In this document: positions 1 through 877 of the stretch, piece after piece
Layout of the letters: each line of letters starts with the position of its first letter
Position numbering within the stretch: the stretch's first letter is position 1
Assembly (NCBI RefSeq): GCF_013122565.1
Contig: NZ_CP053258.1
Length of the DNA: 64,000 bases
DNA from: Escherichia coli
GTDB lineage: Bacteria; Pseudomonadota; Gammaproteobacteria; Enterobacterales; Enterobacteriaceae
Direction: 5' to 3' (one strand)
Position numbers and translations under genes: made by a program
The notes under the pieces: generated by a model
Seen by the model: the letters and a program-made list of their open reading frames with translations, nothing else
What the model was told of the DNA's origin: nothing
The model's database searches: none

Positions 1-108
1 CAGCTCTGCGCCAATGCTCTGATCTTCGTATACGTTTTCATTGACGCCAGTTAGCAATGTTTCTTCGTTTTCACTGACGTTCGGCAGGGTGGTTTGATTA
101 GATGCCAT
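1..108 (-). CDS. agaE: PTS mannose-family EIID component, 5' end only (start ATG at 106-108; gene continues beyond window start)
   Basis: Reverse-complement of 1-108 gives an open frame starting MASNQTTLPNVSENEETLLTGVNENVYEDQSIGAEL, 6 nt downstream of the agaW stop. Assigned by operon position (agaV-agaW-agaE); too short to confirm by sequence. Confidence 0.4.
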   Translation of the reverse strand, partial: MASNQTTLPNVSENEETLLTGVNENVYEDQSIGAEL

Positions 109-877
109 CTTCAAATTCCTCTTTCTGTGCCGCAGGTTGAGTCGGTTCAGGAGATTTACGCAGCAGATCGATCAGCGCCATCGCCAGCGCGGCGGCAGCA
201 ATAGCCAGCACCGGTAACTTGAGCCAGGCTGCGGCAACAAAGCCCAGGATGAAGTAGGGGATGTAGACGTTTTTCATCATGATTTTCAGCAGCACGGCAA
301 AACCGATTGCTGGCATGATGCCGCCCGCGACGCCGAGGCCGTCGATTAATCGTTGCGGCAGGACATCAATGATGGTTTTTGCATGTTCCGCGCCGAAGTA
401 GATAGGCAGGAAAGCGCAGAGAAAATAGAAAGTGCCGAGTGCCAGCAGTGCCAGATAGTTCACGCGTTCAATGCCGCGAATATCGGCGTTCTCTGCCATC
501 CGGTCACAGCGGGACATTACGCCAGACATCACCGAGAACAGGAAGGTAATCCCCATCTGTACTGCAACAGCGAAAGGTACGGCGACACCGACCGCGACAT
601 CGGGTTTCACGCCAGTAGTAATGGCAAACGCCGTGCCGACGATAGTACCGATAATCACGTTAGGCGGTTGTGCGCCCGCCAGCGGGGCCAGCCCCATCCA
701 CACCAGTTCCAGCGTACCGCCGGTTAAAATACCGGTATGCAGATCGCCAAGTACCAGCCCGACTAACGGGCCGAGGACCACCGGGCGGTGCATATGGGTT
801 AAGCCGTTAAACATATCCAGGCCAGCGATAAAGGCGATAATGCCCAACGCGAATGCCTGCAACAGACTGATTTCCAT
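98..877 (-). CDS. agaW: PTS N-acetylgalactosamine-specific EIIC component, full length (259 aa)
   Basis: 259-aa ORF with mannose-family EIIC character, sitting between agaV and the agaE start. Full length, unlike the truncated K-12 copy. Confidence 0.8.
   Translation of the reverse strand: MEISLLQAFALGIIAFIAGLDMFNGLTHMHRPVVLGPLVGLVLGDLHTGILTGGTLELVWMGLAPLAGAQPPNVIIGTIVGTAFAITTGVKPDVAVGVAVPFAVAVQMGITFLFSVMSGVMSRCDRMAENADIRGIERVNYLALLALGTFYFLCAFLPIYFGAEHAKTIIDVLPQRLIDGLGVAGGIMPAIGFAVLLKIMMKNVYIPYFILGFVAAAWLKLPVLAIAAAALAMALIDLLRKSPEPTQPAAQKEEFEDGI

Follow-up and report, generated by a model that had tools for sequence, protein, structure and literature searches.

The aga/gam regulon of Escherichia coli was reportedly described by Brinkkötter et al. 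2000 and by Ray and Larson 2004. A second system of comparison is ManXYZ of E. coli, whose ManY and ManZ subunits have solved structures (6K1H and 7DYR). The regulon consists of agaR, agaZVWEFA, and agaSYBCDI in E. coli C, in O157:H7 strains EDL933 and Sakai, and in EAEC 042. Its intact condition in E. coli C, O157:H7, and EAEC 042 has long been published (PMC3668189, PMC2808357). The published pathway includes import by AgaVWEF, followed by AgaA or NagA, AgaS, and KbaY with KbaZ, and in O157:H7 mutation at position 91 of AgaF or at codon 8 of agaC is known to destroy the use of Aga or Gam (PMC3668189). K-12 is Aga- and Gam- through a published 2.3-kb deletion that runs from agaW to agaA (PMC3668189; Hu et al. 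2013). The K-12 deletion is also given in PMC2808357 (Chaudhuri et al. 2010), with reference to Brinkkötter et al. 2000.

We compared these systems with the locus found at the start of the window, by which we mean the whole stretch of 64,000 nucleotides of E. coli DNA analyzed here. It is very probable that the window opens within agaE, at its 36th codon, and so within an intact agaZVWEFA operon on the minus strand of an E. coli chromosome. The order of the locus, with agaR divergent from kbaZ-agaV-agaW-agaE, is canonical, and the genes follow one another in the order, orientation, and spacing of the E. coli C type of regulon, including an 11-nt overlap of agaW and agaE. AgaR, AgaV, and the N-terminus of AgaE in the window are common E. 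coli alleles, with AgaW off by 1 residue (T133I). The window differs from the described regulon in showing its first 5 genes only, with agaE partial, and in its flank, where a 7.7-kb chb-like island separates prlF from garD and yhaV contains an amber codon. Of the 13-gene aga/gam cluster of the E. coli C type (Aga+ Gam+), 4 complete genes and 1 partial gene are visible in the window, and the other 8 were seen only in the relatives L008 and L006 described below.

The first operon gene, kbaZ (agaZ; 1384..2664, minus strand), encodes a 426-aa protein assigned as the non-catalytic tagatose-bisphosphate aldolase subunit, with 898.5 bits against a cut-off of 707 for the NF012002 equivalog, and the exact KbaZ protein is common, being present on contigs from 873 collection blocks. 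On its other side is the divergent agaR/kbaZ control region of 248 nt (2665..2912, no strand), recognized from the sequence and rich in CTTTC and TTTCGTTT repeats, and then agaR (2913..3722, plus strand), encoding the 269-aa DeoR-family repressor of the aga regulon. AgaR scored 577.1 bits against a cut-off of 351 for NF007316 and 465.3 bits for the AgaR model NF040755, and K-12 has exactly the same AgaR protein. Downstream of kbaZ, agaV (888..1361, minus strand) encodes the 157-aa IIB subunit, with 319.9 bits against a cut-off of 180 for the NF008508 equivalog. The mechanical list of open reading frames extends agaV to a GTG at 1397; the ATG at 1361 was adopted because RefSeq places the ATG at the equivalent base. 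AgaV is identical to the AgaV of E105 and L006, matches the IIB half of ManX (NF011670), and carries the N-terminal motif RIDERLIHGQV, read from the sequence, which includes His15.

Lying 10 nt downstream of agaV, agaW (98..877, minus strand) encodes the IIC subunit of the N-acetylgalactosamine phosphotransferase system (PTS). The original prediction of a full EIIC of 259 aa was borne out by this open reading frame and by its score of 409.8 bits against a cut-off of 300 for the NCBIfam equivalog NF040757 (Pfam family PF03609, EII-Sor). Its length equals that of the RefSeq agaW in the comparison loci L001 and L005, and its only difference from the common RefSeq protein WP_000406214.1, as annotated in these 2 loci, is T133I. 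The context is also that of agaW, with agaV (IIB) on one side, agaE (IID) on the other, kbaZ upstream, and agaR divergent. Plus-strand open reading frames at 353..727 and 471..896, antisense to agaW, were without support.

The 5' end of agaE, the IID subunit gene of the N-acetylgalactosamine PTS, occupies 1..108 on the minus strand and was assigned from its open frame and AgaE matches. Its ATG at 108..106 lies in another frame than agaW, and 36 codons stay open to position 1, where the window edge cuts the gene, giving the translation MASNQTTLPNVSENEETLLTGVNENVYEDQSIGAEL. In 4 comparison genomes (L001, L002, L005, and L006), AgaE begins with exactly these 36 residues, which also align to the first 36 of the 292 positions in the NF040760 model with E = 1.2e-5. 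The cut-off of this model is 500 bits for the full length of 292 aa, of which codons 37-292 are outside the window. A further minus-strand gene, presumed to be an EIID, had been expected to start 6 nt past agaW; the gene is there, as the AgaE N-terminus, and the spacing was wrong. The minus-strand junction reads ...GAA GAT GGC ATC TAA TCA AAC C..., in which we found no start codon 6 nt past the agaW stop, and the agaW frame extended beyond its stop meets the next one after 8 codons. The agaE start instead falls inside the last agaW codons, with the agaW stop TAA at 100..98 and an overlap of 11 nt (ATGGCATCTAA). RefSeq, which places the agaE start on the equivalent base, has the same 11-nt overlap at the homologous locus L001, with agaE at 10230..11108 and agaW at 11098..11877.

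This overlap suits translational coupling of agaW and agaE, and a putative Shine-Dalgarno core for agaE, GAGG (121..118, minus strand), is contained in the 3'-terminal part of agaW and precedes the agaE ATG by 9 nt. The spacing along the locus is that of the RefSeq annotation, with a 22-nt gap, a 10-nt gap, and the 11-nt overlap, and these short gaps together with the overlap fit a single translationally coupled operon. Simple promoter and terminator consensus scans of positions 1..3000 gave counts not above those of shuffles, and no convincing internal terminator was found in the operon, where terminator-like sites were not above the shuffle number.

Comparison with K-12 MG1655 shows directly that the window does not carry the published deletion. 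The MG1655 annotation has agaW (402 nt) and agaA (504 nt) as pseudogenes, with agaE and agaF absent, in agreement with the earlier statement that K-12 agaW is a truncated pseudogene owing to a deletion spanning agaW-agaE-agaF-agaA. The 2 loci are collinear through agaR, kbaZ, agaV, and AgaW codons 1-125, and K-12 DNA aligns to the window at 98.3% identity only from 502 upward; positions 1..501, comprising agaW codons 126-259 and the agaE start on the minus strand, are therefore the visible part of the DNA lost by K-12. In window coordinates, the K-12 breakpoint falls at about 502-511, corresponding to AgaW codons 122-126. Measured against the complete cluster of L008, K-12 lacks 2305 bp in all, from window 1..501 through mid-agaA, which matches the published 2.3-kb deletion. 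At the K-12 junction, agaW at about codon 125 is fused to mid-agaA, where ...CGCTGCGACC is followed directly by TGGCAACAAACC..., and imperfect GCGACC-type microhomology is found at the deletion ends, in agaW (...CGCTGTGACCGG...) and in agaA (...GCGGCGACCTGG...). From residue 126 on, the K-12 agaW product departs from the full-length protein, and with its stop at 134 a remnant of 133 codons is left. The K-12-type deletion allele is absent from the window, in which agaW continues through 502..482 into agaE; reading through the breakpoint near 502 is uninterrupted, as the original prediction of an aga cluster not truncated as in K-12 had it.

We then place this allele in the species, using 5426 complete E. 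coli genomes as the prevalence sample. Positions 1-2700 of the window were matched in 5318 of the 5426 genomes, with a best identity of 99.0%, and positions 1-470, the part missing from K-12, were matched in 4942. The segment agaE-agaF-agaA was held by 4929/5426 genomes, counting matches with at least 80% of the query in one piece, and a 90-nt probe across the K-12 junction identified that junction in 370/5426. Among the matches listed, full-length matches to the K-12 junction came from ER1709, a strain of laboratory type, and 1 further record. A few genomes had partial agaE matches, including H37 with the query of window 1-470 and H63 with the agaE-agaF-agaA query. An exact 60-nt pattern had no match in species-representative genomes. 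The intact aga cluster is thus the majority state, found in about 91% of complete E. coli genomes, and we infer that it is the ancestral state of the species, with K-12 the exception.

Close relatives of the window, L006, L008, and L009, were found by exact-protein look-ups with AgaW and the ROK kinase of the island, and 2 of them were read as stand-ins for the DNA beyond position 1. Over 3718 nt, L008 (GCA_052983875.1) departs from the window at 2506, 2521, and 2572 only; since these 3 mismatches all fall within kbaZ, L008 is identical to the window over 1..2505, and it carries the same rare AgaW-I133 allele. In L008, 12/12 structural aga genes have canonical length and are without internal stops, including agaE (292 aa), agaF (144 aa), agaA (377 aa), agaS (384 aa), kbaY (286 aa), agaB (158 aa), agaC (267 aa), agaD (263 aa), and agaI (255 aa), with Gly91 in AgaF and Gln at codon 8 of agaC. 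L006, a Logan assembly (SRR11451197), is 99.52% identical to the window, gapless and colinear over positions 1..16791 (16.8 kb), the island included, and encodes intact agaE (292 aa), agaF (144 aa, with Gly91), and agaA (377 aa) before its contig ends. Within 1..877, L006 differs from the window at 11 positions.

The window itself is a mosaic of these relatives. Its aga part is identical to L008, which is without prlF-yhaV and without the island, and its island and overall structure match L006; none of L006, L008, and L009 combines the I133 allele with the island. Compared over positions 1..16791 with these 3 contigs, the aga/island locus appears as a recombination mosaic. Neither L006 nor L008 is certain to represent the DNA beyond position 1, but the 2 contigs are consistent with one another and with the counts from the complete genomes.

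Going by these nearest relatives and the population counts, agaE codons 37-292, agaF, agaA, and agaS-kbaY-agaBCDI are probably present and intact, and with the remainder of the aga genes taken to be intact, the strain is most likely GalNAc-positive. The originally predicted uptake of N-acetylgalactosamine through a complete PTS is thus well supported indirectly, by proxy. On the model of the published work in E. coli C and O157:H7, AgaR would keep the operon off as long as N-acetylgalactosamine is absent. AgaV (IIB, expected to be phosphorylated on its conserved N-terminal His), AgaW (IIC), and AgaE (IID), with the shared IIA subunit AgaF, would then import the sugar as GalNAc-6-phosphate. Deacetylation by AgaA or NagA would follow, AgaS would deaminate and isomerize the product to tagatose-6-phosphate, and after a further phosphorylation KbaY/KbaZ would cleave tagatose-1,6-bisphosphate.

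One alternative is that agaW and the agaE start are intact and the pathway is broken past the window edge, by a point mutation, an IS insertion, or another deletion in agaE, agaF, agaS, or kbaY, leaving the strain GalNAc-negative even though it is free of the K-12 lesion. The window shows only 36 of the 292 agaE codons and none of agaF, agaA, agaS, and kbaY, a pseudogene (yhaV with Q41amber) lies in the same neighborhood of the window, and a few genomes, H37 and H63 among them, match agaE only in part. Further, AgaF Gly91Ser alone made O157:H7 isolates of the spinach outbreak GalNAc-negative (PMC3668189), and given point mutations such as this one, the presence of a gene is no proof of the phenotype. 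However, nearly as many genomes hold agaE-agaF-agaA (4929) as match window 1-470 (4942), and every visible aga gene of L006 and L008 is intact, with Gly91 in AgaF of both. We therefore regard a broken pathway as improbable, and an intact operon serving N-acetylgalactosamine uptake is the preferred reading.

An operon read in this way might still encode a faulty transporter if the rare T133I change impaired or altered AgaW, so that the gene looks intact and the IIC subunit is defective or of changed specificity. Residue 133 of AgaW is Ile in the window (codon 481..479) and Thr in 4/4 full-length comparison loci (L001, L002, L005, and L006), and all 5 loci translated for comparison, these 4 plus K-12 as far as its breakpoint, depart from the window at this residue or close to it. 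Relative to L006, the substitution involves 2 neighboring bases (479-480), and the exact AgaW-I133 protein was identified on only 3 contigs of a large collection. Against an effect on function, AgaW residues 1-244 align to the solved structure of the ManY IIC (7dyr_Y, E = 2.8e-28), and in this alignment residue 133, within a stretch of low conservation, is matched to Leu133 of ManY; a functional ManY with Leu at the aligned position argues that T133I is tolerated and that an aliphatic residue here is compatible with function in the family. The I133 allele is also present in at least 2 different genomic backgrounds, L008 and L009. A damaging effect is accordingly very improbable, and T133I is most likely a neutral change, as judged from the sequence comparison.

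We considered agaW as a paralogous mannose-family IIC gene (agaC, manY, or sorA) and rejected this candidate on the equivalog scores. That the open reading frame at 98..877 is such a misnamed paralog and not agaW is barely conceivable, since the paralogous models that also match it, the galactosamine IIC model NF007289 (203.7 bits) and TIGR00822 (206.4 bits), stay under their cut-offs of 300 and 339.85 and the AgaW model is above its own, while the frame sits between agaV and agaE beside agaR/kbaZ and DNA 98-99% identical to it is named agaW by RefSeq in thousands of genomes. The aga PTS and ManXYZ are both 4-part IIA/IIB/IIC/IID systems; AgaW resembles ManY over residues 1-244, and AgaV resembles the IIB half of ManX. 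ManXYZ differs in its orthologous group and in its substrate, and mannose-family IIC models score AgaW below their cut-offs.

The aga genes of this strain are ordinary, but the flank beyond agaR is unusual. The 7.7-kb island, at about 4800-12400 in the window, is flanked by prlF and garD and sits some 1.3 kb past agaR. K-12 and most E. coli lack it: only 3/5426 complete genomes cover it, at about 94% identity, and the Logan contig L006 carries it at 99.5%. Its genes are located at 5065-5835 on the plus strand and at 6791-5880, 8093-6810, 8863-8105, 10228-8876, 11667-10306, and 12059-11742 on the minus strand. Together they encode a second AgaR-family repressor (NF040755, 363 bits), a NagK-like ROK kinase, a Gfo/Idh/MocA oxidoreductase, a ChbG-like deacetylase, a GH4 phospho-glycosidase, and ChbC-like IIC and IIB subunits; no IIA gene was seen in the 7.7-kb island. 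It is tempting to regard the intact aga operon, together with the island, as a single extended amino-sugar locus, in which the island might, for example, import and split a disaccharide containing N-acetylhexosamine whose products feed the aga pathway, and of which the rare AgaW T133I allele could be an adaptive part; we hold such joint action to be unlikely.

Other features of the flank vary among strains. In L005 (strain R32_14_1F), the island stands in place of prlF-yhaV, not beside them. In the window, yhaV (4241..3777, minus strand), encoding the toxin of the PrlF-YhaV toxin-antitoxin system, has TAG in place of the K-12 CAG at codon 41 (4121..4119), and this amber codon splits the gene into pieces of 40 aa and 100 aa, with the antitoxin gene prlF apparently intact. 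The same yhaV split is present in the gene calls of L006 and L009. Further, the yhaB/yhaC region downstream of rnpB (19172-21274) gave no alignment with L002-L004 and appears to be a strain-variable segment.

The biology of the intact aga operon is already known and published, and because the intact state is common as well as long published, finding it says little that is special about the source strain. The source strain is without the laboratory lesion of K-12, and it most likely keeps the uptake of the mucin sugar N-acetylgalactosamine that most natural E. coli possess.
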